DNA of 64,000 nucleotides from an uncultured Candidatus Saccharibacteria bacterium (GCA_965231055.1 OZ246411.1:277041-341040), one strand, 5' to 3'. Shown: positions 12,881-55,342, counted from the stretch's first letter. Translations and numbers: made by a program. Notes: generated by a model not told the origin, from the sequence alone.

Positions 12881-14092
12881 ATGTCAGACAAAAAAGCAGA
12901 CAAATCTGCAGATCAAATGACGCCTACTACAATGGGCGATCTTTTAAATGACAATAATATTCCTCCAAAGGTTGGCGATATCGTAGAGGGAGTTATTATG
13001 TCTAGCGGTAAAAATGAAGTTTATATAGACTTGGGTCCCTTGGGAGTGGGAATAGTAAGAGGAAGAGAAATTTTTGATGTTATGGATTCTCAGGGTGAAA
13101 TGAAAGCAGGGGCAAAAGTTCCTGTGACTATCATTGATTTTGAAAACGAAATCGGTTATGTGGAGCTTTCACTCAAACAAGCTGGTCAAGAAAAAGCTTG
13201 GGAAGAGCTCAAAGGTAAATACAAGAACAACGAAGTGTTTTCTATAAAGGTAGCTGACGCAAATAAAGGAGGACTCATCGTATTTATGTACGGTATCCCC
13301 GCTTTCATGCCAGTATCTCAGCTCACTACTGAACATTATCCACGAGTTGATGGTGGAGACAAGAATGAAATTTTGAAAGTTTTGAAGAGCTTTGTGAGAA
13401 AAGAACTCAAAGTAAAGATTATAGATCTCAGTCAAGATGAGGAAAAAATAATCCTTTCAGAAAAAGCAGCAGTAGCTGAAGAAAAAAGAGGCGAAATTTC
13501 AACTCTCAAAGTTGGTGATATGGTTGAAGGCAAAGTTAGCGGAATTGTGGACTTTGGAGTATTTGTGAAATTTGGTGACGGTATAGAAGGACTAGTTCAT
13601 ATTTCAGAACTCGCTTGGCAGAAAGTGGAAAGCCCAGAAGATATTGTAAAAATCGGAGATGATGTAAAAGCCAAGATAATCGGAGTAGATGGAACTAGGA
13701 TTTCTCTCTCTATAAAACAGCTCAAAGATGATCCATGGGCGAAAGATGTGAAGAAATATGAAGTGGGTCAAGTGATAGAAGGAAAGATTACAAAAATCAA
13801 TCCTTTCGGAGCATTTGTTCAGCTTGATAACAAAATTCACGGACTTGCTCATGTTTCTGAGCTTGGTGATATGCTCAAAGCAGAATCAAAGAATCCTCTC
13901 AAGGAAGGTGATACAATGAAATTCAAGATTCTTTCCATAGAACCACAAGATCACAGACTAGGGCTCGCTCTAGCAAAAGATGGTGATGTTAAAGGTAAAA
14001 AGGAAGAGACAAAAAAACCAAAAGAGGATAAAGAAGAGAAGAAGGCTGATGTAAAAGAGAAGCCAAAGAAAGAAGAAACTGAAAAGAAATAA
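12881..14092 (+). CDS. rpsA: 30S ribosomal protein S1 (multiple S1 domains) with K/E-rich tail
   Basis: Repeated S1 motifs (VGDIVEGVI..., VGDMVEGKVSGIVDFGVFV..., VGQVIEGKITKINPFGAFV...). Confidence 0.85.
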   Translation: MSDKKADKSADQMTPTTMGDLLNDNNIPPKVGDIVEGVIMSSGKNEVYIDLGPLGVGIVRGREIFDVMDSQGEMKAGAKVPVTIIDFENEIGYVELSLKQAGQEKAWEELKGKYKNNEVFSIKVADANKGGLIVFMYGIPAFMPVSQLTTEHYPRVDGGDKNEILKVLKSFVRKELKVKIIDLSQDEEKIILSEKAAVAEEKRGEISTLKVGDMVEGKVSGIVDFGVFVKFGDGIEGLVHISELAWQKVESPEDIVKIGDDVKAKIIGVDGTRISLSIKQLKDDPWAKDVKKYEVGQVIEGKITKINPFGAFVQLDNKIHGLAHVSELGDMLKAESKNPLKEGDTMKFKILSIEPQDHRLGLALAKDGDVKGKKEETKKPKEDKEEKKADVKEKPKKEETEKK

Positions 14093-18746: not shown

Positions 18747-18847
18747 CGATTAATAATTTGTTTTAAAACACACTAGTTAACGCTAGTGTGTTTTTGGGTA
18801 AAAGAAATCCCCCTCGAGACAAGCTACGAAGGAGGAGTTTGTGTGGC

Positions 18848-19168
18848 CTAAACCACGGTTGAAGTTCTGAAAGTGATTAAGATTGAATGATCAGTGTGGT
18901 CGGGACGATGAAGTGTCCCAGACGTTGGTGATTCGAGAACAAACTCGAGAAACAATTTAGGTATCTTTAGTGAACCATAATCGATACCTCTATCGATGAT
19001 CACCAAGAGAACGCTCGGAAGTTTCATGAATTTTTCTAACGATTTCAGAGAGCTAACTATCAGGAGAGCTCCTTCGTCGTAGCTAACCCAGTGATTCATG
19101 AATTCCAAGTATTGTCCCATGTACAAGACAATATTGCCCTGTATCACTCGCGACAATGACTCGCTCAT
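18848..19168 (-). CDS. Hypothetical protein (106 aa), higher GC
   Basis: AGGAGG RBS directly upstream of ATG 19168 on the minus strand. Confidence 0.4.
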   Translation of the reverse strand: MSESLSRVIQGNIVLYMGQYLEFMNHWVSYDEGALLIVSSLKSLEKFMKLPSVLLVIIDRGIDYGSLKIPKLFLEFVLESPTSGTLHRPDHTDHSILITFRTSTVV

Positions 19169-19311
19169 AGACTGCCTCCTTTGCTGAATTAACCAACACT
19201 GACACGATAAAGCTTGCTTGTCAATAGTTGCAGCCTGATTTTCAGTGAGTGTTTTTGTTTTGTTGTATTTCGCTCGGAGGTGAGTTTCTAATAATTACTA
19301 GTACGTAAAAT

Positions 19312-19341
19312 AAAAAATCCGGAAATATCCGGTTTTTTATT
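19312..19341 (-). terminator. Bidirectional intrinsic terminator ending the pilus operon
   Basis: AAAAAATCCGGAAATATCCGGTTTTTTAT, a palindrome flanked by A/T runs. Confidence 0.7.
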
Positions 19342-19376
19342 TAGTTTAATATTCACAATTTTATCTGGAATAAAAT

Positions 19377-19658
19377 TTAGTAAAACGAATTTCGGGGCAT
19401 GGGGTTTATTTCTCTTTGCTCTATTTTTTTATCAAATTCATTTTTAACTCTTTTGTATTTTAGCATTTCTTCGTTTGGAATAAGGTTTGAATCAGCTATG
19501 TTTTCATCTGAGGTGTCCGAATTTAGATCCAGCCAAAACCATATTATGAGTACTGCTCCAACTATTACTATTAAAAGCAAAACAAATTCCATCAGATTTT
19601 CTGTGGAAACTTTTTTGAATATACTTTTTAGTTTTGGTGATAGTTCTATTTTTTTCAT
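19377..19658 (-). CDS. Small membrane protein (93 aa), last gene of the pilus operon
   Basis: One TM helix (FVLLLIVIVGAVLIIWFWL). Overlaps the pilO stop by 4 nt. Confidence 0.4.
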   Translation of the reverse strand: MKKIELSPKLKSIFKKVSTENLMEFVLLLIVIVGAVLIIWFWLDLNSDTSDENIADSNLIPNEEMLKYKRVKNEFDKKIEQREINPMPRNSFY

Positions 19659-20251
19659 TGTTGTTTGGCGTAAGTATTTGCTGTGATTGTTGCCTTTATT
19701 CCATTTGCTGGAATTGATAGCTCTTCCCCACTCTCCATGGGCCTTGTGAATTCTATTGAATTTATTTTTATGTATAGATCCGTGCTTTCCAGTGCCTCTA
19801 GATAATTCAAAATTCCATCAAAAGAGGCCCCTATTTTTAGTTGAAAATCTACGATTTCTATGTCCGTGCCTTCTAGTTTCGTACTTTGGGTTTGAACTGT
19901 TTTCGCTCTGTTGTTTGTGTTATCTTCGCCTAGCATTGCGATTTGCTGAGATACTCCTTTGTCCGATGCTAGCTTTTCAAGTGTATTTATGAGATTTATT
20001 TCGTCTCCTTTTGTGAGTGTGGTAGTTTCGAGTCTATCTGAGTTTTCAAGTATGGAATCAATCAGCTCTAGAGTAGAAGATGCTTTTGAATTTGAGGTGT
20101 AGTTTCGTAGCTCCTGCTTGCTTTGTATTATGGCTAGTTTGTTTGAATTGATTTTTTCTACGCTTTTGTAAATTACAAAATACCCCAAACACGAAACCGA
20201 AATGAGTAACAATATTATTATAAGTTTTGAACTATTTATCTGTTTTTTCAT
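19655..20251 (-). CDS. pilO: Type IV pilus assembly protein PilO-like
   Basis: N-terminal TM, coiled coil, and position after pilM and pilN. Confidence 0.5.
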   Translation of the reverse strand: MKKQINSSKLIIILLLISVSCLGYFVIYKSVEKINSNKLAIIQSKQELRNYTSNSKASSTLELIDSILENSDRLETTTLTKGDEINLINTLEKLASDKGVSQQIAMLGEDNTNNRAKTVQTQSTKLEGTDIEIVDFQLKIGASFDGILNYLEALESTDLYIKINSIEFTRPMESGEELSIPANGIKATITANTYAKQQ

Positions 20252-20807
20252 TTGAAAGCTTTTTTATTTCTGCTTGATTTGGTATTATTTCTATTTCGAA
20301 ATTTATATTTGACTGAGCTACTAAGTTTGAGAGCGGATTTTCTACCCTTGAAACCGAGGGAAGATTTTTTAGGTTATCTATGAAGCTAAGTAGTTTATCT
20401 CTAGATAGTGAATTGCCTTTTATAGTGATTTTACTCTCAGTGAAATTCATAGAAACACTTTCAAGTCTTGTGTTGTCTGGTATGGCACTATATATAGATG
20501 CCACAAAGCTTGATATATATAGTTGATCCTTTTGTACTTCTGATAAATCATCAGCTAGGGTTTGCATTTTGTCTAGTTGATTTTGTTTTTTTATGAGCTC
20601 TGTGTTTGCTGGTAATAGTTTTGCGTTTGTGAGCTGATTTTGCATCATCTCTTCCTCGTCTCCTGTTACTTTTTCGAAACTAATTATTACCAATGAAAAA
20701 ACCAATACACAAAAAGCAAAAATAAAAGTCAGAAACATGAATTTTCTAATCTTGTTTCTGTTTTTTAGTTCTGTTTTCAGATTTTCTGGAAGTAGGTTTG
20801 TTTCCAT
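20232..20807 (-). CDS. pilN: Type IV pilus assembly protein PilN-like
   Basis: Short cytoplasmic N-terminus, TM (FMFLTFIFAFCVLVFSLVI), periplasmic domain. Follows pilM with a 1-nt overlap. Confidence 0.55.
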   Translation of the reverse strand: METNLLPENLKTELKNRNKIRKFMFLTFIFAFCVLVFSLVIISFEKVTGDEEEMMQNQLTNAKLLPANTELIKKQNQLDKMQTLADDLSEVQKDQLYISSFVASIYSAIPDNTRLESVSMNFTESKITIKGNSLSRDKLLSFIDNLKNLPSVSRVENPLSNLVAQSNINFEIEIIPNQAEIKKLSNEKTDK

Positions 20808-21883
20808 TAGTAGTTTTTGTTGTTGGCTCCTCTAATTGCTAGGCCTATTACGGTAGCAAATCCAGCGGAGTGTTCGTTACTTGATTTAAAAATATGCTCA
20901 ACTTGTTTCTTCTCTACGTTTACCCACGGGTTTCCTATTAGAACCGGTAAATTTAGTATTTTGCTTAGTTGGTTATCTATTCCTTTTAGTTTTGCTCCTC
21001 CACCAGATAGTAGTATTTTTAGGTCGTTACCTTTTTCACTAAAGTGTTCATTGAAAAAGTTTATCGTTCCTTTTATTTCGTTGGCTAGGGTTTTTATAAC
21101 ATCCCCCACTGCCAAATTTGTTTCTGGCTGAGTGTCTGAGGTAAGATCAATGCTCTTTTTGATTTTCTCCGCTTGTGAAAATAACAAGTTTTTTGTTTTT
21201 TGTATGGCTTCGGTGATAGATTTTCCCGCAGTTTCGAGGCTAGAAGTAAAAAGAGGAATATTTTCTTTAAATATTGCTAGTCCAGTTCTATTTGTACCTA
21301 TGTCTATAATGAGGCAAGGAGTTTTTTGATCTTTTTCTGTGAGCATACTTCTTGCCAACGAAAAAGATTCTATTTCCATGGAGATGGGCTTTAGCCCTGC
21401 AGAAACTAGTATCTCTATCATCGGATCTACTGTGTTTTTTGGAGCTGCCGTGAATAAAATCTTTTGAGATGGCTTACTACTGATTATATTGAAATCGGTA
21501 TAAACTTCGTTTATGCCAAGCGGAATATGCTGTTCTGCTTCATACATCAATTCTTCTTTTAGATTTTCTTTATCTAGTGGAAAATCAGTGCCGATAGTTC
21601 TTACGAAGCATTTTGATTCGGGAAGTGATGCTATGACTAGTTTTGTATCTAGTTTTCCAAATTCCGGTTTTGATATAGAATCTAGGATTATTTCTTTTAG
21701 TATTTTGGGGTCTTTGATCTCATCTTTTACTATAACTCCCTGAGGGAAAGCGGTTTCTTTGAATCCAGCTACTCTAAGAGTGCCTCCTGAGTATTTCAAA
21801 AGCATAATCTTTAGTGAAGAATCGCTGATGTCTATACCAAGCGCAGGTTTTCTTATGGCGAATATGTCTTTTGTATTTTTCAT
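20807..21883 (-). CDS. pilM: Type IV pilus assembly ATPase-like protein PilM (actin fold)
   Basis: LGIDISDSSLKIMLL, an actin/FtsA-like N-terminus, and the PilM family size (358 aa). Confidence 0.75.
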   Translation of the reverse strand: MKNTKDIFAIRKPALGIDISDSSLKIMLLKYSGGTLRVAGFKETAFPQGVIVKDEIKDPKILKEIILDSISKPEFGKLDTKLVIASLPESKCFVRTIGTDFPLDKENLKEELMYEAEQHIPLGINEVYTDFNIISSKPSQKILFTAAPKNTVDPMIEILVSAGLKPISMEIESFSLARSMLTEKDQKTPCLIIDIGTNRTGLAIFKENIPLFTSSLETAGKSITEAIQKTKNLLFSQAEKIKKSIDLTSDTQPETNLAVGDVIKTLANEIKGTINFFNEHFSEKGNDLKILLSGGGAKLKGIDNQLSKILNLPVLIGNPWVNVEKKQVEHIFKSSNEHSAGFATVIGLAIRGANNKNY

Positions 21884-21942
21884 TTTTACGAGAATTGCTT
21901 TGCTATAATCTTAGACTGTATTAACTAAAAGTCAATATGATT

Positions 21943-23331
21943 TTACGGATTGGCTACTTCTTGCCATGAAACAAGTTCGTATTGTCCACTTACAGACAGT
22001 GTCGGAAAATATGGAGGAGGACTTTCTAATAAGTATGAATTGTAATCGTAGTTTGTGTTTATAAAACCTGATGAGTAATTGGGATAAGTTCCATATTTTA
22101 GGGCACTTGGCTCGTTGCTTATTATTGCGCCCAAGACATCTAGTGTTGATTTGGTGTTTCCAGGATACTGCGCTCTGAAGACTTTGCCTTTTTGGGCTAT
22201 CATAGCGGCGTGGATGATCGTATCTTCTGGAACATGAAAGGGAAACTCTACATTTCCTTGAGCTATTAGTCCTAATGAATCAATCTGCGGACCATTTACG
22301 TAAGTAGTATTTGCATTAATAATAATATCTGTGTAGTTGGCTATTTGTTCTGGAAATTTTGCAGAAGCTACCGTTACTCTTCCCGAGAGCTCCCCATCCA
22401 CCCAGACATCATCTTCCACAAAAATAATTCCATTTGAAGGAAGTGGGTAAGTACCTATGAGTGTTTGCTGTTGTATTTCTAGTCTTTTTTTGACCCATCC
22501 TTTTCCGGGAACATATCCATCATGGCCTTGCTTTAGTCTAGTGATATTGTAAACATCATATGTTCCATTTGCATTGAAATTTATGTGGTATCCAATATTT
22601 TCAGTACTTGCTAAATACTTTCCTCCGTTTTGTGCAGAAGTTTTCATTTCTCCCAAGTCCACAGAAATATCGTCAAAATTTATCAATGATACTGGAAATT
22701 CCCAAAATGAAGATGGACATGTGTCGGGAAGCCCCGTACTTCTCCATACTCCATCTTTGGTTGTTCCGTCGTAATCGTAATCTGGTTTGTAGCTTGATAC
22801 TATAGAATCACATGCGCCATCAAATTTTATTCCGCCGTTACTGTGAACTCTTCCAGAAACCGAGGTTGTAGCTGAGAAATCAACATTGCTATTTAGCAAA
22901 AACATAAAGTTGGCAAGCGTGGGTATTCCATATTTAGCTTCTATTGTTCTCTTTCTTTCTGGATTTGAAAGTAGATATGAGGTGGATCTTACTGTAACTG
23001 TTGATGATCCCACATCTGGCGGATCAATCTCTAGCGAATATCTGCCTATTACATCTCCTGCTGGATCTTTGAAGTCATGAACATATGGTCCGGCATTTCC
23101 GCTTCCTTGTCCGTCAAAATAGTCATCTGGATTGTGGGCCAAAACCCATTTGTAATGATTTATTCCCGCTTCCGAGATATCCAAAATTTGCTCCTTATTG
23201 TTTTCAATTCTCGTTGCTGTGTGTTGAGTGGAGACATACTGCAAAATAACACTAGCCACCGCAACAATGATTGATGTAAATATTAGTGCCTGAATTAATA
23301 TTGATCCTTTTGTGTTTTTGATGTTTTTCAT
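21943..23331 (-). CDS. PilX-N-like minor pilin/pilus-associated protein (462 aa)
   Basis: N-terminus KGSILIQALIFTSIIVAVASVILQYVSTQ resembles the PilX_N domain. Large beta-rich C-terminus. Confidence 0.45.
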   Translation of the reverse strand: MKNIKNTKGSILIQALIFTSIIVAVASVILQYVSTQHTATRIENNKEQILDISEAGINHYKWVLAHNPDDYFDGQGSGNAGPYVHDFKDPAGDVIGRYSLEIDPPDVGSSTVTVRSTSYLLSNPERKRTIEAKYGIPTLANFMFLLNSNVDFSATTSVSGRVHSNGGIKFDGACDSIVSSYKPDYDYDGTTKDGVWRSTGLPDTCPSSFWEFPVSLINFDDISVDLGEMKTSAQNGGKYLASTENIGYHINFNANGTYDVYNITRLKQGHDGYVPGKGWVKKRLEIQQQTLIGTYPLPSNGIIFVEDDVWVDGELSGRVTVASAKFPEQIANYTDIIINANTTYVNGPQIDSLGLIAQGNVEFPFHVPEDTIIHAAMIAQKGKVFRAQYPGNTKSTLDVLGAIISNEPSALKYGTYPNYSSGFINTNYDYNSYLLESPPPYFPTLSVSGQYELVSWQEVANP

Positions 23332-23918
23332 TTCAAATTTCTAAGTTTTACCAATGTTGAAAATACTATTTTTGAATTTGATTCTACGTTCTCTTCCAAT
23401 GCGCATATCATGGATATCTTGGCGACTCTCACATCGCTTTCGCTTATTGGGTCGCTTATTGGATTTTGTGTACCACTGAAATCTGATCCGTAGTATGCAA
23501 AAATATTGTCTCCCACTTCTTGAGAAAAGTGTGATGAGATGTTTACTGTATTCGTTGCACTCTCGGGATATATTTCATTGACCGGCTCAAAAATTTCTTT
23601 AGTAATAATTTTTGAATTTTTTGATATTTTTATTTTTTCCACTGTTCCGTCAAGATCGGTATCAGAATAAAATATTATTTGATTACTTTCAGCTAAGGCT
23701 AGTGGGAATGCGCCGTTTTCTCCTTCAATCATGCTTATCATATCTTTCTCGACTCCACTAAGTGCTCTTTGACATTCTTCTCCTACCGAAGCTTTTTCTA
23801 CAGCTACTCTCTGCATTCTAAATGAATCAGTGAGTAAAGTTGATATCATAGCCATAACTATTCCGGTTATACCTATTACAACAACTATCTCCATCAATGT
23901 GAAACCTTTTTGTGACAT
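23328..23918 (-). CDS. Type IV pilin/pseudopilin with prepilin-type N-terminal cleavage/methylation motif
   Basis: MSQKGFTLMEIVVVIGITGIVMAM, the classic G/FTLxE class III signal. Confidence 0.7.
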   Translation of the reverse strand: MSQKGFTLMEIVVVIGITGIVMAMISTLLTDSFRMQRVAVEKASVGEECQRALSGVEKDMISMIEGENGAFPLALAESNQIIFYSDTDLDGTVEKIKISKNSKIITKEIFEPVNEIYPESATNTVNISSHFSQEVGDNIFAYYGSDFSGTQNPISDPISESDVRVAKISMICALEENVESNSKIVFSTLVKLRNLK

Positions 23919-23940
23919 AAAATACCAGTGTTAAAATTAT

Positions 23941-25248
23941 TTATAGAGGTTCTAGCTCGTAAGTTTTCCAAATTGGCCCATTTGTATTTATCAATTCATT
24001 TATCGTGTTGTATCCGGGTACTGTTATATTTATTGTGTATGCTGTATTTTCCAGCGATTCAAAAAATACTTGTCCATAATCAGTCACTCCCCTAGTTTCA
24101 TCATATCCTTCTTTACTTAGATTTACATTTGCAGGATAGATTGGTGATTTGGTATCTATATCAAGTAGTGTCGTAAGAAGATTGAAATCTGTTTTGGGTA
24201 CCATGAAGATGCCTATGTTTCCACTCGTCGCTGGGTCTAGATCTAGTCCATTGGCAGGATTGATGCCTCCTATATTGTATTCAGATTCACCGGGTCCATA
24301 TGTTGTGAAATAAGTATCAAATTCCATTCCCGTAAGAGTTAGTACTCCATTTTCAGGGGTGATTATGTCTTGGTCGTATTTGTAAACTGGATTTCCCGCG
24401 CCATCTGTTCCCAGCACCTTGTTTCCTCTTAGGTGTAGTGAAATATTTCCAACTGCTTCAGCTGTAGCTTTGTCTGTTGTTACTATTGTTAGGTTTGAAA
24501 CTCTGTCTATGGACAAGGCTATTGGATTTACTTGATCTTCCAAAACCGAAGGGTCAGCTTTGTCGGGACTTGGAGTAATATTTAATCCCGGAGTGATAGT
24601 ATAGTCCGAACTATGTCCTGATTTAGAAGCGACTACATGATATATTTCTGTTCCTGGGTTTAAGTTGTATTGGAAAAGTATGCCGTTTATATCTGTGTAA
24701 CCATAAAAATATTCTCCTGTTCCATTTCTTGTAAATTCTACCTTGGCTCCTTCTACGGGGTCACCATTCGCAGAAGCTACTATTACTTTGAGAGTTCCTT
24801 TTCCTTCTGAGATCTCAGTTTGACCTGAGGAAAAATCACTTATCATTGTTACTGGATTTGTACATTCTATTTCTTTCCAGCATACGGAAATTTTTACTCT
24901 TTTATAATCATTTGGTGCAGTATCTCCTTCCTCTACCGTTCCATCGTAGAGATCATCAAACCACGAAATATATGTTTCTATATTGAAATCTGAATTTGCT
25001 ACGGTTTCTGTTTTTGTGTTTGGTAAATTTCCCGAAGGATTGCCTTGCAACGTTCCTATATTTTCGTATTCCATATTTCTTATGATTTCCATTTCTTGGT
25101 TTGCTACCTTTGAGGCAAGGGCTTGGAGTCTGTTTTGGTTTACTGTTTTAAATATCGTTGTAAAAAGAGAATAAACAGCAGTTATGATTATTAAAAACAC
25201 GCCGATACTTATAAGTAGTTCAATAAGGGTAAACGCTTTCTTGTTCAT
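23941..25248 (-). CDS. Large (435 aa) prepilin-type protein, possible tip adhesin
   Basis: MNKKAFTLIELLISIGVFLIIITAV prepilin motif. The C-terminus contains a carboxypeptidase-regulatory-like beta-sandwich region. Confidence 0.65.
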   Translation of the reverse strand: MNKKAFTLIELLISIGVFLIIITAVYSLFTTIFKTVNQNRLQALASKVANQEMEIIRNMEYENIGTLQGNPSGNLPNTKTETVANSDFNIETYISWFDDLYDGTVEEGDTAPNDYKRVKISVCWKEIECTNPVTMISDFSSGQTEISEGKGTLKVIVASANGDPVEGAKVEFTRNGTGEYFYGYTDINGILFQYNLNPGTEIYHVVASKSGHSSDYTITPGLNITPSPDKADPSVLEDQVNPIALSIDRVSNLTIVTTDKATAEAVGNISLHLRGNKVLGTDGAGNPVYKYDQDIITPENGVLTLTGMEFDTYFTTYGPGESEYNIGGINPANGLDLDPATSGNIGIFMVPKTDFNLLTTLLDIDTKSPIYPANVNLSKEGYDETRGVTDYGQVFFESLENTAYTINITVPGYNTINELINTNGPIWKTYELEPL

Positions 25249-26456
25249 TAGATTTGACCTGTTAGGGAGTAAATTGGAGATATAACTGAAACAGCAACCA
25301 CGGCAACTCCCACTCCGAGTATTAGCATTAGTACCGGTTCTATGATAGACGAAATATTTTTAAGTTCTTGATCAACTTCTGATTCGTAAAAAGAAGCGAT
25401 TTCGTTCAAAATCTCATCCAAGCTTCCAGTTTCTTCTCCTACGGAGATGATTTGGTTTACAACAGGAGGAAATATGTTTGAAAATTTTGCTAGTCCTTGG
25501 GACAGCGAATCTCCTTTTTTCACTATTTCAGCTGAATATAGTAGAGCCTCTCTGTATTTCAAGTTTCCTAGTGACGCAGCAGTAATTTCTAGCGCTTTTA
25601 CTACTGGTACTCCACTTTTTAGCATTGAGCTAAGCGATCTTGCAAATCTTGCCGTGTTTATCTCCTTTATTATCATTCCCACCTTTGGAAGCTTGAGTCC
25701 TGCCATGCTTGACATTTGTTTGCCTTTTTCAGTTTTGAAAAACATAACAAATAAAACAACTATTACTGCCAAAACCCCTACTGCTATTGGCCATTTGTAG
25801 ATCAGGAAATTGCTTGCCCCTATAAGCATTTTAGTTGTAATTGGAAGATCTGCTTCGAAGCTATCAAAAATTTGAGTTAACTTTGGCATCACAAAAACGA
25901 CCATCATAATAGCTATTCCTACCATTGCTGTAAGTATAACTATAGGATAATACATCGCACCTTTCACTTTTCTTATTAGTTCATAATCCCTCTGCATTTG
26001 AAATGCTAGCTGTAAAAGAACTTTATCAAGACTTCCGGAAAGCTCTCCGATATTGATCATGCTAGTAAACATAGAAGGAAATATTCTAGGATATGCACTC
26101 ATGCTTTCTGCTAAGGGTTTTCCTGATTCAACTCCTTTGTATATTTCGCTAAGTATTTCTTTGAAATATTTATTCTTTGTTTGATCTTTTAGGTTTCCTA
26201 GTGCTCTTGAAAGAGAGAGACCTGATTTGAGCATTATCGCCAAGTGTCTCGTGAAAAGAACTTTTTCCATAAGAGGTACACCCGTAGTTATTTGTATATC
26301 TAGCAGGCTTTTCTTTTTTTTCTTTTCTTCTGAGTGTACCAAATACAACCCCTTCTTTCTGAGGGTTTCTGTGAGAGTTCTTTTGTCTGCTACTACCATT
26401 TCACCCTTATGGTCCTCTCCGTTTTTATTTTTTGCTTCGTATGAATATGTTGCCAC
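25248..26456 (-). CDS. pilC: Type IV pilus inner-membrane platform protein PilC (GspF family)
   Basis: Duplicated GspF domains and three TM segments. Confidence 0.85.
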   Translation of the reverse strand: MATYSYEAKNKNGEDHKGEMVVADKRTLTETLRKKGLYLVHSEEKKKKKSLLDIQITTGVPLMEKVLFTRHLAIMLKSGLSLSRALGNLKDQTKNKYFKEILSEIYKGVESGKPLAESMSAYPRIFPSMFTSMINIGELSGSLDKVLLQLAFQMQRDYELIRKVKGAMYYPIVILTAMVGIAIMMVVFVMPKLTQIFDSFEADLPITTKMLIGASNFLIYKWPIAVGVLAVIVVLFVMFFKTEKGKQMSSMAGLKLPKVGMIIKEINTARFARSLSSMLKSGVPVVKALEITAASLGNLKYREALLYSAEIVKKGDSLSQGLAKFSNIFPPVVNQIISVGEETGSLDEILNEIASFYESEVDQELKNISSIIEPVLMLILGVGVAVVAVSVISPIYSLTGQI

Positions 26457-26481
26457 TTGCCAATTATTAAAAAATTATAAT

Positions 26482-28218
26482 CTAATCTTGGGTTACTCTT
26501 AAAACTTCTTCTATCGTCGTGACTCCCGTAGCTGATTTTATAAATCCATCATTGAGCATGGTTATCATTCCCTCTTCTATCGCTTTTTTCTCTATTTTTT
26601 CTGTAGAAGCTCTTTGTTCTACCAATTCTTGAATTGCAGTAGTTACTTCCAAAACTTCGTAAATACCTATTCTTCCTTTAAATCCTTTGTTGTGACAATT
26701 TACACAACCCTTGCCTCTGAAAAACTTCAGATTTTCTATTTCAGCTTTTTCTGGAACAAGCTTTTCTTTCTTCATGGTTTCTACTACTTTATTCAAGTCG
26801 TAGTGCTGTTGGATTTCTTTGAGAGTTTTCGCATCGGGTGAATATGATTCTATGCATTTGGGGCATATCCTTCTTACCAGTCTTTGTCCCACTATTACAT
26901 TGATCGTTGATGATGCTAAGTATGGTTCTACTTCCATATCCAGAAGTCTAGGAACAGCTCCCGAAGCATTGTTGGTGTGAAGTGTGGAAAGCACTATGTG
27001 CCCGGTAAGTGCTGAGTGAATCGCTATTTCTGCTGTTTCATTGTCTCTGATTTCCCCTACCATTATTATGTCAGGGTCCTGTCTCAAAAGAGATCGTAGC
27101 CCCTTTGCAAAAGTGAGTCCTATCTGGGGATGTACCTGTGTTTGGTTTATTCTGGGCATGTGGTATTCAACCGGATCTTCTATTGTGGCGATATTTACGT
27201 CTGTAGTATTTAAAACATTGAGTATCGAATAAAGAGTGGTAGTTTTTCCTGATCCCGTAGGTCCCGTGACAAGCACCATTCCATGTGGTTTTTGTATGGC
27301 GTTTTTTATTATTTCAAGTGCCGAGTGCTGAAAGCCTAGTTGCTCTAGTGTCAGTATCTGGGTTCCTTCTTTTAGAATTCTAAGTACCACTTTTTCTCCT
27401 CCAAAAACTGGTATCGTTGAAACACGAAAAGAGACTTTGTAGTCGGAACTCTCTTTTTTAAATCGTCCGTCTTGTGGGAGTCGTTGCTCGTCAATTTTTA
27501 GATTTGATAGTACTTTGATTCTTGCGATGATGGCTCTTAGTGTTTGTTTTGGAAGAGTCATTACGTCTTTCAAAATTCCATCCACTCGGTATCTCACCAC
27601 TAGTTCCAGGTCTAGGGGCTCTATGTGTATGTCGGAAGCATCTTCTAGTATTGCGTGCTCAAGAATAGAATCAACTATTTTAATTACGGGCATGTCTTGA
27701 GCTATTTCTTCCAAGCTTTTGTCTGTGCCTTCTACTTTTTGAACTTTATTCACTTCGCTTAAAATATCTTCAAATTCTGATTTGAGACTTTGTTTGTATA
27801 GTTTCAGTGCAAAATTTATTCCCGAAGTTGTAGTTAGATACACTACTGTCTTTTTGCCCGTTTTCTTTTTTATTGATTCGCTTGTCTCTAAATCTGTGGG
27901 ATCCGCCATCGCTATCTTCAAAGTTTTTGGATCACTTTCAAATGCTATTATTCTATGTTCTCTAGCAAGTGGCTCGGGAATAATTGATAGTACTTCCTTT
28001 TTTATTTCCGTGTTTTCCAAATCAACAAACTCAAAACTTATGTTTTGAGCGATTGCTTTGTACAAATCTTTTTCCTTTACAATATTTTCAGATATCAAAA
28101 ATTGCTCCAAGTCTTCTTTGCTTGTTTTGTGTTTTTCTTTCACTTCTTGAAGTTTTGATGCGGTGAGAAAACCTTTTTCTATTATTATTTTTTCTAGTTC
28201 TGATTGATTGATAATCAT
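26482..28218 (-). CDS. pilB: Type IV pilus assembly ATPase PilB (GspE family)
   Basis: Walker A VLVTGPTGSGKTTTLYS, Asp/His boxes, and C-terminal CxxC...CxxC. Confidence 0.9.
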   Translation of the reverse strand: MIINQSELEKIIIEKGFLTASKLQEVKEKHKTSKEDLEQFLISENIVKEKDLYKAIAQNISFEFVDLENTEIKKEVLSIIPEPLAREHRIIAFESDPKTLKIAMADPTDLETSESIKKKTGKKTVVYLTTTSGINFALKLYKQSLKSEFEDILSEVNKVQKVEGTDKSLEEIAQDMPVIKIVDSILEHAILEDASDIHIEPLDLELVVRYRVDGILKDVMTLPKQTLRAIIARIKVLSNLKIDEQRLPQDGRFKKESSDYKVSFRVSTIPVFGGEKVVLRILKEGTQILTLEQLGFQHSALEIIKNAIQKPHGMVLVTGPTGSGKTTTLYSILNVLNTTDVNIATIEDPVEYHMPRINQTQVHPQIGLTFAKGLRSLLRQDPDIIMVGEIRDNETAEIAIHSALTGHIVLSTLHTNNASGAVPRLLDMEVEPYLASSTINVIVGQRLVRRICPKCIESYSPDAKTLKEIQQHYDLNKVVETMKKEKLVPEKAEIENLKFFRGKGCVNCHNKGFKGRIGIYEVLEVTTAIQELVEQRASTEKIEKKAIEEGMITMLNDGFIKSATGVTTIEEVLRVTQD

Positions 28219-28584
28219 TTAAGCTTTCTTTTTTATATTGTTTACGATTTCTTCAAGTGAACTATCTGCTTTTGTTATAAAATCTATTGCTCCCAGTTTT
28301 TTACACCTATCTTCTGTCTCCTTTTCTCCTAGGTTGGTAACTATAATTACTGGAATTTTCTTGGTTTCGTTGTTTTTCTTTAGATCCTCCAAGACTTGAA
28401 ATCCATCCATTTCAGGGAGTCGTAGGTCTAATACTATTAGATTTGGCTTACTGGATCGTGCCAAGACCAATCCTTCTTTTCCATTCGTTGCTGTTAGAGC
28501 TTCTAGTCCCTCCACATTCAATGTCGCGGAAAGCGCATACAATAGAGCGGTTTCATCCTCTATTATTAGTATTTTTTTATTCAT
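28219..28584 (-). CDS. Single-domain response regulator (CheY-like receiver)
   Basis: ILIIEDE ... LIVLDLRLPEMDG ... phospho-acceptor Asp and a conserved K. Confidence 0.8.
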   Translation of the reverse strand: MNKKILIIEDETALLYALSATLNVEGLEALTATNGKEGLVLARSSKPNLIVLDLRLPEMDGFQVLEDLKKNNETKKIPVIIVTNLGEKETEDRCKKLGAIDFITKADSSLEEIVNNIKKKA

Positions 28585-28593
28585 AAATTAAAA

Positions 28594-29958
28594 TTATTTC
28601 TCTTTTGGAAGCGAAATACTAAAGACAGATCCTTTTTCTAACTTGCTCTCCACCCAGATTTTACCTTTGTGTCTTTCCACTATGTTTTTGCATATAAATA
28701 ATCCAAGTCCCGTTCCTTTTACCGAAATTTTTGATGCATTGCTGGCTCTGAAAAATTTTGCGAATAGTTTGGAAATTTCTTTTTCAGGTATTCCTATTCC
28801 ACTATCTTTGATTTCAAGCGTGACGTATTTATTTTTTATCTGAGTTCCTTTTGTGCTTTTTCCATCCTTGGTTGTTGGATACTTTATTCTTATCGAAACT
28901 TTGCCATTCACGGGAGTATATTCTATGGCGTTTTCGATAAGATTTATCACCACTTGCTTTATGTGAGCTTCGTCAATTCTAAATTCAGGTATTTTTTTGG
29001 ATTTGAATTGTAGGGATATTTTTTTAAGTCTAGCTTTTTCTGAGAATTTTTCGATAACCTCGGAAATTATTTTTTCAAATGAGACAACTTTTTTATCAAG
29101 TCTCACTCTCCCCTCTTCTATTCTTGAAACATTTAAAAGATCATTAACTATTTCTATCATGTCTTGGTTTGTCCTTGCGGATTGGTTTACTATGTCTAGC
29201 TCTTTGTTTTTATCAAAATCAATTTGATTCAGTTTCATCTTCTGAAGCAATTCCAGGTTCCACCTGAGTATAGCGAGTGGAGTTTTTAGTTGATGCGATG
29301 CCATGGAGACAAAGTCTGTCTTCATTGTATCCATTTCTTTTTCCCTCGTGATGTCGTCTAGTAGCTTCACGACTCCCAAAACTTTTCCAGACGGATTCAT
29401 AACTGGTGTGGTAACAATTTTTAGCATTCTTTTTCTCGGGAAATCTATTTCTATTTCTTCTCGTATTGGCTCAAGTTTTTTGAAATTTTTTATATCAACG
29501 GTATTTTTAAGTACCTTGTTTAACGAAGAAAAAGTTTTTGTTTTTTTGTGTCCCGCCTTGTATCCCAGAGCTTCCTCTGATGAAATTCCGAGTATGTGTT
29601 CGGCTCGTGGATTTATCATTGTTACATTTTCATCTCGACTTAGCATAATCAAGCCATCAGCTAAAAAATTTATAATAGCTCTTATTTTTTCTTCTTCTAT
29701 TTGAAGCATTCTTTTTGCTCGTGAAATCTTTTCTACCCCAGAAGATACTAAGTATGCGAGAGTGATCATGGAGATTGCTATGATTGCCACTCCTAACATG
29801 ACTATATCTGGGGAATAATAATTTTTGGCAAGTATGTATGTGCCCACTTCCACTATCGCGGTGATTATTCCTATAAAGGAAAAAAGAAAATTAGGGCACT
29901 CCCATATAGAGAGTCCTTCGTCATGGCACGAACGAAAAAATTTCTTATAAAACGACAA
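28594..29958 (-). CDS. Sensor histidine kinase (TM, PAS, HisKA, HATPase_c)
   Basis: H-box SHQLKTPLAILRWNLELL. N, G1 and G2 boxes (GTGLGLFICKNIVERHKGKIWV). Confidence 0.8.
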   Translation of the reverse strand: MSFYKKFFRSCHDEGLSIWECPNFLFSFIGIITAIVEVGTYILAKNYYSPDIVMLGVAIIAISMITLAYLVSSGVEKISRAKRMLQIEEEKIRAIINFLADGLIMLSRDENVTMINPRAEHILGISSEEALGYKAGHKKTKTFSSLNKVLKNTVDIKNFKKLEPIREEIEIDFPRKRMLKIVTTPVMNPSGKVLGVVKLLDDITREKEMDTMKTDFVSMASHQLKTPLAILRWNLELLQKMKLNQIDFDKNKELDIVNQSARTNQDMIEIVNDLLNVSRIEEGRVRLDKKVVSFEKIISEVIEKFSEKARLKKISLQFKSKKIPEFRIDEAHIKQVVINLIENAIEYTPVNGKVSIRIKYPTTKDGKSTKGTQIKNKYVTLEIKDSGIGIPEKEISKLFAKFFRASNASKISVKGTGLGLFICKNIVERHKGKIWVESKLEKGSVFSISLPKEK

Positions 29959-29988
29959 GATTTTTATTTATGTTTTAAAATATTTTTG

Positions 29989-31536
29989 TTAGATCAGTGA
30001 TTGTCCGGTCATTTCTAGTGGTTTTTCTAGTTCCATTAATTTTAATATGGTAGGAGATATATCTCCCAATATCCCATCTTTCATTTTTTTGTGTTTTTTC
30101 CCGTACTCAACTAATACTACAGGCACAGGATTTTTTGAGTGAGATGTTTTTGGACTTCCATCCGGATATATCATTTCTTCTATATTTCCGTGGTCAGCTG
30201 TTATCAAAACTTTTCCATGTTTTTGCATAACTTTCGAAACTACTTTTTTGATCTCTCCATCCAAAAATTCCAAAGCCCTTACGGCAGAAGGAATATCTCC
30301 GGTGTGCCCTAGCATATCTGGATTTGCATAGTTCATTACAGTGAGATCTGGATAGTGTTTGTTGTATAGCGACGATACTACTCTTTTTGTGATTTCAGAT
30401 GCGCTCATCTCGGGTGCCATGGCATATGAAGTTACGTCTTTTGATTTGATCATTATTCTCTTTTCATTTTTGGCAAGTATCGCAGATCCTCCGTGAAAGA
30501 AAAAAGCAACTGGAGCAAATTTTTCTTCTTCAGCAATATACATCTGTGTGAGATTCTCTTGTTTTGCAATAAAAGCTGGAAGTGAATTGTGAACATAGGA
30601 AGAGGGAAATGCTATGGACATAGGAAGATCATCCCCGAAGCTAGTCATGCCCGTGAAATACAAGTTATCAATTTTCTTGCCTCTATTGAAAAAATTAAAT
30701 GCAGGAAGTACGAAGGGTTTGGTTAGTTGTCTCGTTCTGTCTGATCTAAGGTTGTAAAAAATAAAAGCATCTTTGTTTTTTACGAGTGAACCATCTTTTT
30801 TTGGGTCCCCTATTATTGTTGGTTCTATTTGAAAATCATCGAGCCCTTGTTTGTATGCTTTGTTCAGTGCTTCCTCTGGTGTTTTTGCATGAAGTCCTAT
30901 TCCATGGACGATAGCGTCGTAAGCTTTTTTTGTACGATCATATTTGTGTGCCCTATCCATAGCATAATATCTTCCCATCACTGTGGCTATGTGCCCTACC
31001 CCTAGTTTTTTTATTTTCTGTTCAAGTAATTTTATAAATCCAGATGCACTTCGTGGAGCAGAATCTCGCCCATCAGTTATCGCATGAATTTCTACTTTTG
31101 AAATATTTTGTTTTTTGCAAAGCTTGAGAAGTGCAAACAAATGATTTATATCACCGTGTACTTTTCCGTCGCTTAGAATTCCGACCAAGTGCAGGGCGGA
31201 TTTATTTTCTCTGGCGTGATTCATCGCAGCGAGCAGTGTCGGGTTTTGGAAAAAAACACCGCTTTCAATCGCATTGTCTATTATAGTGAGTTCTTGTTCT
31301 ACTACTCTCCCCGCTCCCATGTGCATGTGCCCTACTTCAGAATTTCCCATAAGTCCCACCGGAAGCCCCACGCTTTCGCAACAAGTCTGGACGTAGGAAA
31401 CAGGACACTCTTTTTTTAGCGAATCAAAAAAAGGCATTCGTGCAAGTTTTATTGCGTTGCCTGGATAGTTTTTTCCTTCACCAAAACCATCCAAAATCAT
31501 CAATACGGTTGGCGGTTTTTTTGCGTGAGTTTGCAA
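29989..31536 (-). CDS. gpmI: 2,3-bisphosphoglycerate-independent phosphoglycerate mutase
   Basis: iPGM family. Catalytic Ser region and metal-binding His/Asp motifs. 515 aa. Confidence 0.9.
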   Translation of the reverse strand: MQTHAKKPPTVLMILDGFGEGKNYPGNAIKLARMPFFDSLKKECPVSYVQTCCESVGLPVGLMGNSEVGHMHMGAGRVVEQELTIIDNAIESGVFFQNPTLLAAMNHARENKSALHLVGILSDGKVHGDINHLFALLKLCKKQNISKVEIHAITDGRDSAPRSASGFIKLLEQKIKKLGVGHIATVMGRYYAMDRAHKYDRTKKAYDAIVHGIGLHAKTPEEALNKAYKQGLDDFQIEPTIIGDPKKDGSLVKNKDAFIFYNLRSDRTRQLTKPFVLPAFNFFNRGKKIDNLYFTGMTSFGDDLPMSIAFPSSYVHNSLPAFIAKQENLTQMYIAEEEKFAPVAFFFHGGSAILAKNEKRIMIKSKDVTSYAMAPEMSASEITKRVVSSLYNKHYPDLTVMNYANPDMLGHTGDIPSAVRALEFLDGEIKKVVSKVMQKHGKVLITADHGNIEEMIYPDGSPKTSHSKNPVPVVLVEYGKKHKKMKDGILGDISPTILKLMELEKPLEMTGQSLI

Positions 31537-31642
31537 TTTATTTTTTGTGTTTCTATTTCAAAGCTGTTTGTTTATTATATCACAAATTGCTGACTTAATA
31601 AAGGTTGAAAAAAAGAAATTTCTGTGCGATAGTATTTTACGT

Positions 31643-53141: not shown

Positions 53142-53272
53142 ATTTTTATTATAAATAGTTTGTGAGATTTGGTTTGTGGCTATGTCCAAAATCATCGCTA
53201 CTCACTACTTGCTTGTTTTTTTCAGCTATTGGCTGGAAGCGAGCTCAATATAAGCTAATAACCAACAAAAAA

Positions 53273-55342
53273 ATGAACATTGAAATCTGGGCGATTATCG
53301 CCGGAATCATTGCACTAGGGTACGCTCTATATTTAGGAGCGAGTATTAAGAAATTCAGCAAAGGAAATGAAAAAATGCAAGAAATTGCAAAGGCAATACG
53401 ATCTGGATCGATGGCTTATCTTTCTAGACAATACAAAGTTATTGCAATCTTTGCTGTCATCATCGCTGTTGTGCTTTGGTTTGCTGTAAATTGGCAGACC
53501 TCCGTAGCGTTTGTTGCTGGTGCTATTCTCTCGGCAACTGCTGGCTATGTGGGTATGAATATTGCTACAGAAGCCAATGTTAGAACAGCAGAAGCTGCTA
53601 AAGGTGGAATCAAGAAAGCTCTCTCGGTAGCTTTCAAAGGCGGAGCGGTTTCTGGAATGACAGTTGTGGCTCTCGGATTACTTGGTGTCGCGATTTTTTA
53701 TTACTGGTTCAAAGATCCCATTTTGCTTTTGGGTTTTGGTTTCGGTGCTTCATTGATCTCTCTTTTTGCTAGAGTCGGTGGTGGAATTTTTACAAAAGCT
53801 GCTGATGTGGGAGCTGACTTGGTAGGAAAAGTAGAAAAAGGAATTCCAGAAGATGATCCAAGAAATCCAGCTGTTATTGCAGATAATGTCGGTGACAATG
53901 TCGGTGACTGCGCAGGAATGGGAGCTGATTTATTTGAAACTTATTCAGTTACTTTGATTGCAGCAATGCTTCTTGGCGTAGGATTTGGTGGAGGAATCAC
54001 TTATCCTTTGGCTCTAGGAGCTGTTGCAGTTATCGCTTCTATTATCGGAACGTTTTTTGTGAAGCTTGGGAAGACAAACAATATTATGGGTGCGCTTTAC
54101 AAAGGAACTTATGTTACAGCAGGTCTTTCTGCTATAGCTTTTTATTTTATCACTAAATATTTGGATCAAGATATCAAGCTTTTCTTTGCGACACTCGTTG
54201 GTCTAGTGATAACAATTGTGATCACTCTTATTACTGATTACTACACCTCAAAAAAATATGCTCCTGTAAAACTCATTGCCACTGCTAGCAAAACTGGTCC
54301 TGGAACCAACGTAATTTCCGGACTTGCGATAGGACTTCAGAGCACATTCTTTCCAGTGATCCTAATCGTAGTCGGAATTTTGGTTGCTTACTGGCTCGGG
54401 GGAGTTTATGGAATAGCAATTGCTGCGGTAGCCATGCTTGCTACAACTGGAATGGTTGTTGCCATAGATTCATATGGACCAATTACTGATAATGCTGGTG
54501 GTATCGCTGAGATGTCAAATCTCCCAGAAGATATCAGAAAAACTACCGATGCACTTGATGCTGTAGGAAATACAACAAAAGCAGTGACCAAGGGTTATGC
54601 CATAGGATCTGCGGCTCTTGCGGCGCTAGCATTGTTTGCAGCATACAGAGAAGAGATTGTTAAGGCTATGGATAAATTTGATTTGCCAGGTAAATTGGAT
54701 TTGGCTATCGATAGTCCATTGGTTATGGTTGGACTTTTTATAGGTGCTGTTCTTCCATTTGTATTCAGCGCATTTACAATGAGCGCTGTGGGAAAAACTG
54801 CTTTCAAAATTGTAGAAAATGTTAGAGAGCAGTTTAGAACAAAGAAAATTATGGAAGGAATAGATAAGCCAGATTACGCGCAGTGCGTGAAGATTGTTAC
54901 AGCGGCTGCTCAAAAAGAAATGATCATGCCTGCTGTTTTGGCTGTTGCTGCTCCTTTGCTTGTTGGATTTATTCTTGGTCCAGTAGCGCTCGGTGGACTT
55001 CTCGCTGGAGTTATTGTTTCTGGACTATTGCTTGCTATACAAATGACAACTGGCGGTGCCTCTTGGGACAATGCCAAAAAATATATTGAAGATGGAAATT
55101 TTGGCGGAAAAGGATCCGATGCTCACAAGGCAGCGGTTGTAGGAGATACTGTTGGTGATCCATTCAAAGACACAGCTGGACCAGCTCTTAATGCATTGAT
55201 TAAAGTAATAAACACCATAGCTTTGATTTTTGCTTTTCTGATTGCCCAGTACACTCTTATTCATTCTGACAAATTCAATGTTAAAGATGTTTCAAAAGCT
55301 TTGAACGAGCAGGGTGTCAAAATAACGCAGTTGATAAAATAG
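53273..55342 (+). CDS. hppA: Membrane-bound ion-translocating pyrophosphatase
   Basis: AADVGADLVGKVE...DNVGDNVGDCAGMGADLFE. Start placed at ATG 53273 rather than the GTG at 53162. Confidence 0.9.
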   Translation: MNIEIWAIIAGIIALGYALYLGASIKKFSKGNEKMQEIAKAIRSGSMAYLSRQYKVIAIFAVIIAVVLWFAVNWQTSVAFVAGAILSATAGYVGMNIATEANVRTAEAAKGGIKKALSVAFKGGAVSGMTVVALGLLGVAIFYYWFKDPILLLGFGFGASLISLFARVGGGIFTKAADVGADLVGKVEKGIPEDDPRNPAVIADNVGDNVGDCAGMGADLFETYSVTLIAAMLLGVGFGGGITYPLALGAVAVIASIIGTFFVKLGKTNNIMGALYKGTYVTAGLSAIAFYFITKYLDQDIKLFFATLVGLVITIVITLITDYYTSKKYAPVKLIATASKTGPGTNVISGLAIGLQSTFFPVILIVVGILVAYWLGGVYGIAIAAVAMLATTGMVVAIDSYGPITDNAGGIAEMSNLPEDIRKTTDALDAVGNTTKAVTKGYAIGSAALAALALFAAYREEIVKAMDKFDLPGKLDLAIDSPLVMVGLFIGAVLPFVFSAFTMSAVGKTAFKIVENVREQFRTKKIMEGIDKPDYAQCVKIVTAAAQKEMIMPAVLAVAAPLLVGFILGPVALGGLLAGVIVSGLLLAIQMTTGGASWDNAKKYIEDGNFGGKGSDAHKAAVVGDTVGDPFKDTAGPALNALIKVINTIALIFAFLIAQYTLIHSDKFNVKDVSKALNEQGVKITQLIK

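Follow-up and report, generated by a model that had tools for sequence, protein, structure and literature searches.

A type IV pilus gene cluster with a ComZ-like pilin and a two-component pair beside pilB in a bacterium of the Candidate Phyla Radiation

The locus described here lies in a 64,000-nucleotide (nt) stretch of an uncultured bacterial genome (GCA_965231055.1, OZ246411.1:277041-341040), referred to below as the window. Between positions 19,312 and 31,536 a minus-strand gene block encodes a two-component pair, the assembly machinery of a type IV pilus (T4P) and three pilin-like proteins (Table 1). An earlier reading, made from the sequence alone, had listed 11 minus-strand open reading frames (ORFs) here; all 11 were found again, and the gene order, sizes, overlaps and terminator that it gave were reproduced. 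The same reading had spoken of a twelve-gene operon. Twelve genes do lie within the coordinates, but only eleven had been named, and the twelfth is a glycolytic gene, iPGM. Neighbouring genes overlap by 1, 4, 1, 20 and 4 nt or are separated by gaps of 0-59 nt. Three of the twelve have non-ATG starts, namely TTG in iPGM and the histidine kinase gene and GTG in pilC; for iPGM, the ATG at 31500 (Met13, chosen by the gene caller) is a likelier start than the TTG at 31536. The 40 nt 5' of all 12 start codons (19658-31536) are A-rich and devoid of GGAGG-type Shine-Dalgarno motifs.

Table 1. Genes and transcription signals of the pilus block, in the order of transcription (aa, amino acids).
Feature	Position	Strand	Evidence
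Extended -10 promoter-like box, TGATATAAT	31574-31582	minus	consensus match only
iPGM, cofactor-independent (2,3-bisphosphoglycerate-independent) phosphoglycerate mutase	29989-31536	minus	iPGM_N 3.5e-71, Metalloenzyme 1.1e-61
Sensor histidine kinase, 454 aa	28594-29958	minus	PAS, HisKA and HATPase_c
Stand-alone CheY-like receiver, 121 aa	28219-28584	minus	Response_reg 4.9e-24
PilB extension ATPase, 578 aa	26482-28218	minus	T2SSE 1.5e-131, MshEN 2.6e-14, TIGR02538 PilB 5.7e-173
PilC platform protein, 402 aa	25248-26456	minus	T2SSF twice, 5.2e-59
Modular minor pilin, 435 aa	23941-25248	minus	N_methyl and CarboxypepD_reg; predicted GspI-like module with three transthyretin/CnaB-like beta-sandwich domains
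Minor pilin, 196 aa, GspJ/PilW position	23328-23918	minus	N_methyl 1.4e-6
ComZ-like/GspK-class pilin with predicted beta-solenoid, 462 aa	21943-23331	minus	no strong Pfam match; PilX_N in homologues
PilM, actin-like ATPase fold, 358 aa	20807-21883	minus	PilM_2 2.5e-46, TIGR01175 5.5e-54
PilN, 191 aa	20232-20807	minus	PF05137 2.1e-6, above gathering score
PilO, 198 aa	19655-20251	minus	family profile against M. xanthus PilO (3jc8)
Bitopic membrane protein, 93 aa	19377-19658	minus	no family match (Pfam, NCBIfam)
Bidirectional intrinsic terminator hairpin, CCGGA-TATT-TCCGG	19319-19332	both	flanked by A- and T-runs

The GyrA protein of this genome is 62-63% identical to those of Moranbacteria, Parcubacteria and Buchananbacteria and 66-68% identical to nearer sequences, and the named homologues of the pilins belong exclusively to Patescibacteria. 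Together these place the host in the Candidate Phyla Radiation (CPR), in a sparsely sampled lineage of the Parcubacteria type, and bear out the sequence-only reading in its view of a two-component pair preceding a T4P cluster in a CPR cell. The window belongs to a contig of 843,892 bp, and its sequence has also been assembled from SRR10912415-18.

The assembly machinery is readily recognised. The translated PilB contains the Walker A motif GPTGSGKT and a CxxC...CxxC motif, it scores 576 bits as PilB compared to 263 bits as ComGA, and its N-terminal MshEN domain is present. PilO was the least obvious member, as the 198-aa protein alone has no direct Pfam match; a family profile built from it and 12 positional homologues matched the PilO structure 3jc8 over nearly the full length (E 8.7e-9), and 8 of these 13 proteins are themselves matched by Pfam PilO. 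The locus does not fit a ComG-type competence pseudopilus, for which ComGA/ComGB, short ComGC-G pilins and no PilMNO are expected; PilM, PilN, PilO and a full-length PilB are present. Absences were judged from Pfam scans of the window ORFs of at least 190 aa plus four shorter ones; among these no Peptidase_A24 protein (PilD), PilT or secretin was found, in agreement with what had been stated earlier. A type II secretion system was rejected because there is no secretin and no GspC/L/M set, and because PilMNO is present.

Directly after pilO, 11 related loci from diverse CPR encode positional counterparts of the 93-aa protein (88-128 aa), for instance at 13806-14078 in locus L003, 11951-12217 in L008, 13745-14011 in L013 and 4046-4312 in L016, with seven more loci besides. 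These small proteins share a single transmembrane helix and end in (D/N)(P/I/S)F, at identities of only 15-25%. Judged from gene position and sequence features, they may add a fourth, so far undescribed member to the alignment complex.

By fold and gene order, the three pilins between pilC and pilM follow the succession GspI-(GspJ position)-GspK, or PilV-PilW-PilX. In the family of the last member, the 462-aa protein, the leader has Gly at position -1 in 40 of 40 sequences and Glu at +5 in none of the 40. Gly-1 without Glu5 is a hallmark of GspK/PilX-class capping pilins, and the protein has a GspK-like pilin domain that lacks Glu5. A word-indexed search returned 265 full-length matches with 35-44% identity. 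Relatives form 487, 1,669 and 3,795 clusters (at 50% identity) at E-value limits of 1e-30, 1e-10 and 1e-3, respectively; they are encoded in the genomes of at least 562 species, and 25 residues are invariant across CPR classes. An AlphaFold model derived from 40 homologues (pLDDT, the predicted local distance difference test score, 91.7) consists of a long N-terminal helix (residues 8-66), four strands that form the pilin sheet (83-135), a large domain rich in beta structure (142-430) and, at 452-459, a last strand with the invariant Trp456. The best fold match was Thermus thermophilus ComZ (fold-comparison values 16.5 and 299), followed by the solenoids of ice-binding proteins (13.6-15.1, 176-190), GspK (9.5, 98) and XcpX (8.4, 90). 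The model thus suggests a triangular beta-solenoid of the ice-binding-protein type that is grafted onto a pilin fold, and the order of the predicted elements fits an insertion before the last strand.

This is the architecture described for ComZ, in which a solenoid like that of ice-binding proteins interrupts a GspK-like pilin domain ahead of its last strand; the case has been made that ComZ sits at the pilus tip and binds both the GspI-like PilA2 and DNA (PMC6561018). The crystallised ComZ chain (6QVI) has 518 residues compared to the 462 aa of the CPR protein, which is acidic. Further differences from the T. thermophilus ComZ-PilA2 pair are the three extra immunoglobulin (Ig)-like domains predicted for the GspI-like partner in CPR and the lack of an outer membrane secretin at the CPR locus, where DNA binding is putative. 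According to a 2026 preprint, all cyanobacterial PilX proteins carry the same solenoid insertion and may act as a PilY1-like "tip plug" (10.64898/2026.02.12.705559). The cyanobacterial PilX1-3 resemble the CPR protein in a pilin fold interrupted by an ice-binding-protein-like solenoid, in the absence of PilY1, in the proposed tip-plug role and in having a specific PilV-type partner. They belong to another phylum, whereas the CPR module is a fixed three-gene cassette by pilB-pilC with a predicted function.

The first member of the trio, the 435-aa protein, is modelled (pLDDT 87.0) as a GspI-like pilin followed by three Ig-like domains of the transthyretin/CnaB type, and the GspI-like first component of an I-J-K complex is therefore represented. 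It had been called a prepilin, which holds for the GspI-like pilin module with its N_methyl segment but is less straightforward for its leader, MNKKA/FTLIE (the slash marks the end of the leader), which has Ala at -1 where 30 of 32 relatives have Gly. Glu5 is found in 27 of the 32 family members. As lengths in this family run from 430 aa to more than 1,100 aa, the count of added domains appears to vary. The 196-aa protein has a canonical leader, MSQKG/FTLME, with Glu5 in 29 of 29 family members. When its family profile was compared with the PDB and Pfam, only the N-terminal helix matched known pilins, and the globular part found no counterpart. The ComZ/GspK and GspI-like architectures, deduced from fold models and leaders, support the earlier proposal in so far as both large proteins are pilins that plausibly belong to the tip. 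They may serve as adhesins in host attachment or DNA uptake, as was also suggested then.

Compared to the GspI-J-K and PilV-W-X complexes (3CI0, 5VTM), the CPR trio has no fourth pilin of the GspH/FimU type, the alpha-helical insert of GspK is replaced by the beta-solenoid, the GspI equivalent is extended by the three beta-sandwich domains and the middle member is structurally unmatched. A similar building principle is known from the modular pilins PilB and PilC of Streptococcus sanguinis, in which the pilin module at the N-terminus is followed by further folded modules, exposed on the pilus for adhesion (PMC8179133); the grafted modules differ from the three transthyretin/CnaB-like domains in CPR.

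Conservation of the locus was followed in 80 loci of other species, each retrieved by way of its homologue of the 462-aa protein. The 196-aa family stands immediately before the 462-aa homologue in 75 of 78 loci and the 435-aa family occupies position -2 in 66 of 72. PilC at -3 (36/69 loci) and PilB at -4 (30/68) are less constant. Directly downstream, PilM was found in 19 and TPI in 18 of 79 loci. The full order iPGM-histidine kinase-receiver-PilB-PilC-435-196-462-PilM-PilN-PilO-small protein is retained in the three closest loci (L003, L008 and L013). Recurrent neighbours in the 80 loci are TPI, PGK, RecJ, RNase H, ComEC, NusA, trigger factor and MraY. Genes of glycolysis are thus repeated neighbours of the CPR pilin cassette, in the window as in related loci such as L022 and L055: iPGM lies upstream in the window, L003, L008 and L013, and TPI, where it is the downstream neighbour, is followed by PGK. 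This may be mere conserved synteny.

The T4P of Saccharibacteria, T4P-1 and T4P-2 of TM7x and Southlakia, are likewise of type IVa with pilB/C/M/N/O and the minor pilins PilV/W/X, and their PilX proteins also carry additional domains at the C-terminus and lack a predicted PilD signal (PMC12206443, PMC10633639). These pili serve host binding and twitching (PMC12206443, PMC10633639). Several features set them apart from the present cluster: the first TM7x locus also holds pilT, pilD and a major pilin, the extra domains of TM7x PilX1 and PilX2 have been described as jelly roll and beta-propeller, and no two-component genes have been reported there. Pilins were found to be poorly conserved across CPR in the TM7x study (PMC12206443), whereas the trio described here is widely conserved outside Saccharibacteria.

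The sequence-only reading had considered the pilus module complete. The window lacks a major pilin, besides PilD and PilT: a six-frame motif scan over its 64 kb revealed only three pilin-like N-termini, none of the short major-pilin type. PilD and PilT are also not part of the conserved neighbourhood in the 80 related loci, where two neighbour clusters, c56 and c57, were considered as PilT/PilD candidates and read as housekeeping-type, non-pilus proteins (from sequence alone, without a family-library scan). In view of these absences, the cluster is best understood as an assembly-plus-tip module and not as a complete system. Eight related loci carry a major-pilin-like gene of 157-168 aa beside pilM that has no equivalent in the window. 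At these loci (L017, 5236-5739, and seven others) the product has a major-pilin-type N-terminus, KG/FTLIELLVVIGIIGILAAI, and is encoded in a divergent pilM block by the pilin cassette.

Upstream of pilB, the kinase has two transmembrane helices joined by an outer loop of about seven residues, a cytoplasmic PAS domain and the H-box SHQLKTPL, as read from the translation (HisKA 8.7e-13, HATPase_c 7.4e-30). The translated receiver has the complete catalytic set (E9/D10, D53, T83 and K105), so that the pair is of the classical two-component kind. No CheA, CheW or methyl-accepting chemotaxis protein (MCP) was detected among the window ORFs scanned against Pfam, and a Chp/Pix-type system is not apparent from them. 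A PilS-PilR-type transcription regulator was dismissed since the 121-aa regulator consists of the receiver only and has neither a sigma-54 activation nor a helix-turn-helix domain. The regulator had indeed been described as lacking an output domain; its direct control of the pilus motor, also proposed then, is inferred from gene adjacency only. This adjacency is close, as the stop codon of the receiver is immediately followed by the ATG of pilB (0-nt gap), and it recurs elsewhere: in 7 of 44 other loci the gene directly before pilB on the same strand encodes a receiver and no other domain, at distances of -11 to +49 nt, and another locus (L019) has the arrangement pilB-kinase-regulator-pilC. 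A receiver domain occurs in only 12 of the 1,373 ORFs of the related loci, and 7 of the 12 lie immediately upstream of pilB. The adjacency is good guilt-by-association evidence for a functional link and speaks for post-translational control of the motor without proving it. Since the regulator has no DNA-binding domain, protein contact with the motor would be the simplest mechanism.

Such contacts have a precedent in Synechocystis, where CheY-like regulators bind PilB1 (10.1101/2021.06.11.447907). In the PixE/PixG-PilB1 system of this organism, and in PilG/PilH of Pseudomonas aeruginosa, receivers without DNA-binding output control pilus extension by protein contacts. Both systems differ from the CPR pair in that their input comes from CheA-type kinases and MCP-like receptors; in addition, the regulators of the cyanobacterium carry PATAN domains. 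The CPR pair comprises a classical PAS-HisKA kinase and a bare receiver, and its interaction with PilB is deduced only. The MshEN-like N-terminal domain of PilB (28045-28203, residues 6-58) was considered as a receiver of another signal, cyclic di-GMP (c-di-GMP). Both of its RLGxx(L/V/I)(L/V/I)xxG motifs lack the Arg and the Gly, and the NCBIfam model of the c-di-GMP motif scores 28.2 bits, below its cut-off of 38, which makes c-di-GMP an unlikely input of PilB; the motif residues suggest that the domain no longer binds it.

Transcription signals frame the block. The terminator hairpin with its flanks has a predicted free energy of -14.1 kcal/mol (z -4.74) and was found on both strands in the terminator scan. 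Between this hairpin and the tRNA-Arg gene, the minus strand has no perfect TGnTATAAT other than the box upstream of iPGM. The sequence-only reading would have been called into question by internal promoters or terminators splitting the operon. The terminator scan returned no convincing minus-strand terminator within the block, and promoter-like hexamer pairs occur there at chance frequency (43 compared to 40.4 expected in shuffled sequence). With one extended -10 box ahead of the block and one terminator behind it, the signals are consistent with a single transcription unit, and a 12-gene transcript is plausible on these signals; iPGM would then be a housekeeping gene that is probably co-transcribed with the pilus block.

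Taken together, the locus most likely encodes a monoderm-style type IVa pilus machinery with a three-pilin tip complex, whose extension is gated by the receiver and whose genes form a single transcript; a probability of roughly 0.7 is assigned to this reading. The three pilins would form a priming and tip complex in which the 462-aa protein acts as cap or "plug", and the solenoid and the Ig-like domains would be exposed at the far end of the pilus as adhesive parts. Capping or priming would be the part of the conserved solenoid protein, whereas host-specific adhesion would more likely fall to the variable stalk of Ig-like domains. The system would be completed from elsewhere in the genome by a major pilin and a prepilin peptidase, and probably also by a retraction ATPase. 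The membrane-anchored PAS kinase is proposed to phosphorylate the receiver on Asp53, and the phosphorylated receiver may contact PilB, or else PilC or PilM, and thereby gate pilus extension. The whole block including iPGM would probably be transcribed as one unit ending at the hairpin.

Several points weigh against this reading. Ala at -1 may reduce processing of the 435-aa protein, and the globular part of the 196-aa protein has no recognisable similarity to GspJ/PilW, so that its assignment follows position and size only. The profile of the 462-aa family (40 members) found no sequence in the PDB below E 0.26 and thus no homology to ComZ; the common architecture could be convergent, and the insertion point of the solenoid was taken from the order of secondary structure elements and not from coordinates. 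The adjacency of receiver and pilB comes from only about four independent lineages. Major pilin, PilD and PilT were all not found in the window, which bears on the predicted pilus assembly and pilin processing in this genome. Internal transcription starts are possible, above all in the gaps ahead of pilM (59 nt) and pilC (25 nt).

It is conceivable, if somewhat unlikely, that the two-component pair is an unrelated neighbour of the pilus genes, for example a PhoR- or WalK-like sensor of envelope state or phosphate, and that the receiver serves as a phosphate sink or signals elsewhere. The nearest NCBIfam families of the kinase are PnpS, WalK and PhoR, all below their cut-offs, and from this kinship the pair might regulate something else. 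No receiver gene stands upstream of pilB in 37 of the 44 related loci, the pair adjoins the housekeeping iPGM, and its interaction with the pilus motor is putative. This explanation leaves a receiver without output domain abutting the start of pilB unaccounted for, as well as the recurrence of that position in several arrangements and lineages among the 80 loci, and direct control of PilB by a regulator has its precedent in cyanobacteria (10.1101/2021.06.11.447907).

The second alternative, a competence pilus for DNA uptake whose ComZ-like 462-aa pilin would be the tip DNA receptor that feeds ComEC, is unlikely. In its favour, the best structural match of the model is a DNA-binding competence pilin (PMC6561018); weak N-terminal matches to ComGE, ComGF and ComGD point in the same direction, and conservation of the 462-aa protein as strong as that seen across CPR classes would be expected for a universal ligand rather than for a host-specific one. 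CPR bacteria are naturally competent and possess T4P and ComEC (PMC10633639), and ComEC is encoded about 6.7 kb downstream in 17 of the related loci. Against DNA uptake, neither sequence homology to ComZ nor counterparts of its DNA-contacting lysines could be established, and the three pilin families are acidic (median isoelectric points 4.6-5.4; net charge of the window protein -16), which weakly disfavours DNA binding. PilM/N/O and a full-length MshEN-PilB are features of type IVa pili and not of the ComG type. In Saccharibacteria the T4P are essential whereas comEC is dispensable (PMC10633639), and the cyanobacterial solenoid is found in motility-type and competence-type PilX alike (10.64898/2026.02.12.705559).

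A bolder proposal goes beyond the preferred reading of a receiver-gated pilus with a three-pilin tip, and it is speculative and rather improbable: an ancient three-pilin tip cassette in most CPR lineages other than Saccharibacteria, made up of a GspI-like pilin with Ig-like domains, a 200-aa pilin and a ComZ-like solenoid cap, would recognise a universal ligand, for example extracellular DNA or a widespread cell-wall polymer. In several lineages a bare receiver, phosphorylated by a PAS kinase, would dock on the N-terminal domain of PilB, switch on pilus extension post-translationally and so take the place of c-di-GMP as input. That the 196-aa pilin is the major fibre-forming subunit of a locus self-sufficient except for the peptidase is highly doubtful, since its most canonical leader (G/FTLME), its invariant Glu5 and the want of any other candidate pilin gene in the window are opposed by its place between the GspI-like and GspK-like pilins, which is that of GspJ/PilW, by a 4-nt overlap with the 462-aa gene that implies similar rather than much higher expression, and by the separate major-pilin-like gene beside pilM in eight related loci.

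The locus is a real and fairly ordinary CPR T4P cluster that extends known T4P biology and does not represent a new kind of system. CPR T4P loci (PMC12206443, PMC10633639) and modular pilins (PMC8179133) have been described before, as have solenoid-bearing PilX/ComZ pilins and CheY-like control of PilB. No report linking ComZ to CPR was found in the searchable literature. CPR, two-component systems, histidine kinases and T4P come together there in one paper only, a phylogenomic study of salinity adaptation that names each of them once or twice. Within the same literature, a ComZ-like cap in a fixed I-J-K cassette widespread in CPR outside Saccharibacteria appears to be unreported, and so does a pilB repeatedly coupled to a PAS kinase with a bare receiver. 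Type IV pili are the best-supported means of the ultrasmall CPR cells for locating and holding on to a host and for DNA uptake, and published work on CPR pili deals almost wholly with Saccharibacteria. The conserved trio and its cap family offer a defined target for structural work and for identification of the ligand, be it host or DNA, and the receiver-pilB pairing offers a testable route to the control of piliation in organisms with very few regulators. The finding is useful for annotation and target choice.

Some observations concern the surroundings of the cassette. In 10 of the related loci, arrays of paralogues of about 186 aa with a signal peptide and two transmembrane helices (71 copies in total) lie some kilobases downstream of the pilin cassette, for example at about 18.6 kb in locus L027. 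The proteins resemble TrbC/VirB2-type pilins of type IV secretion systems, which have reportedly been found in CPR. Downstream of the pilus block in the window, about 630 nt (18747-19376) without a called gene separate the bidirectional terminator from a convergent plus-strand gene ending at 18746. This gap is long for a compact CPR genome, and its sole content is an uncalled 106-aa ORF on the minus strand (18848-19168); an Rfam scan of the stretch (E up to 1) gave nothing meaningful. Farther away, the match of a 524-aa protein (55450-57024) to the Ser/Thr protein kinase domain is limited to the C-terminal half of that domain (Pkinase positions 154-257), and the gene adjoins that of an H+-pyrophosphatase (53162-55342).

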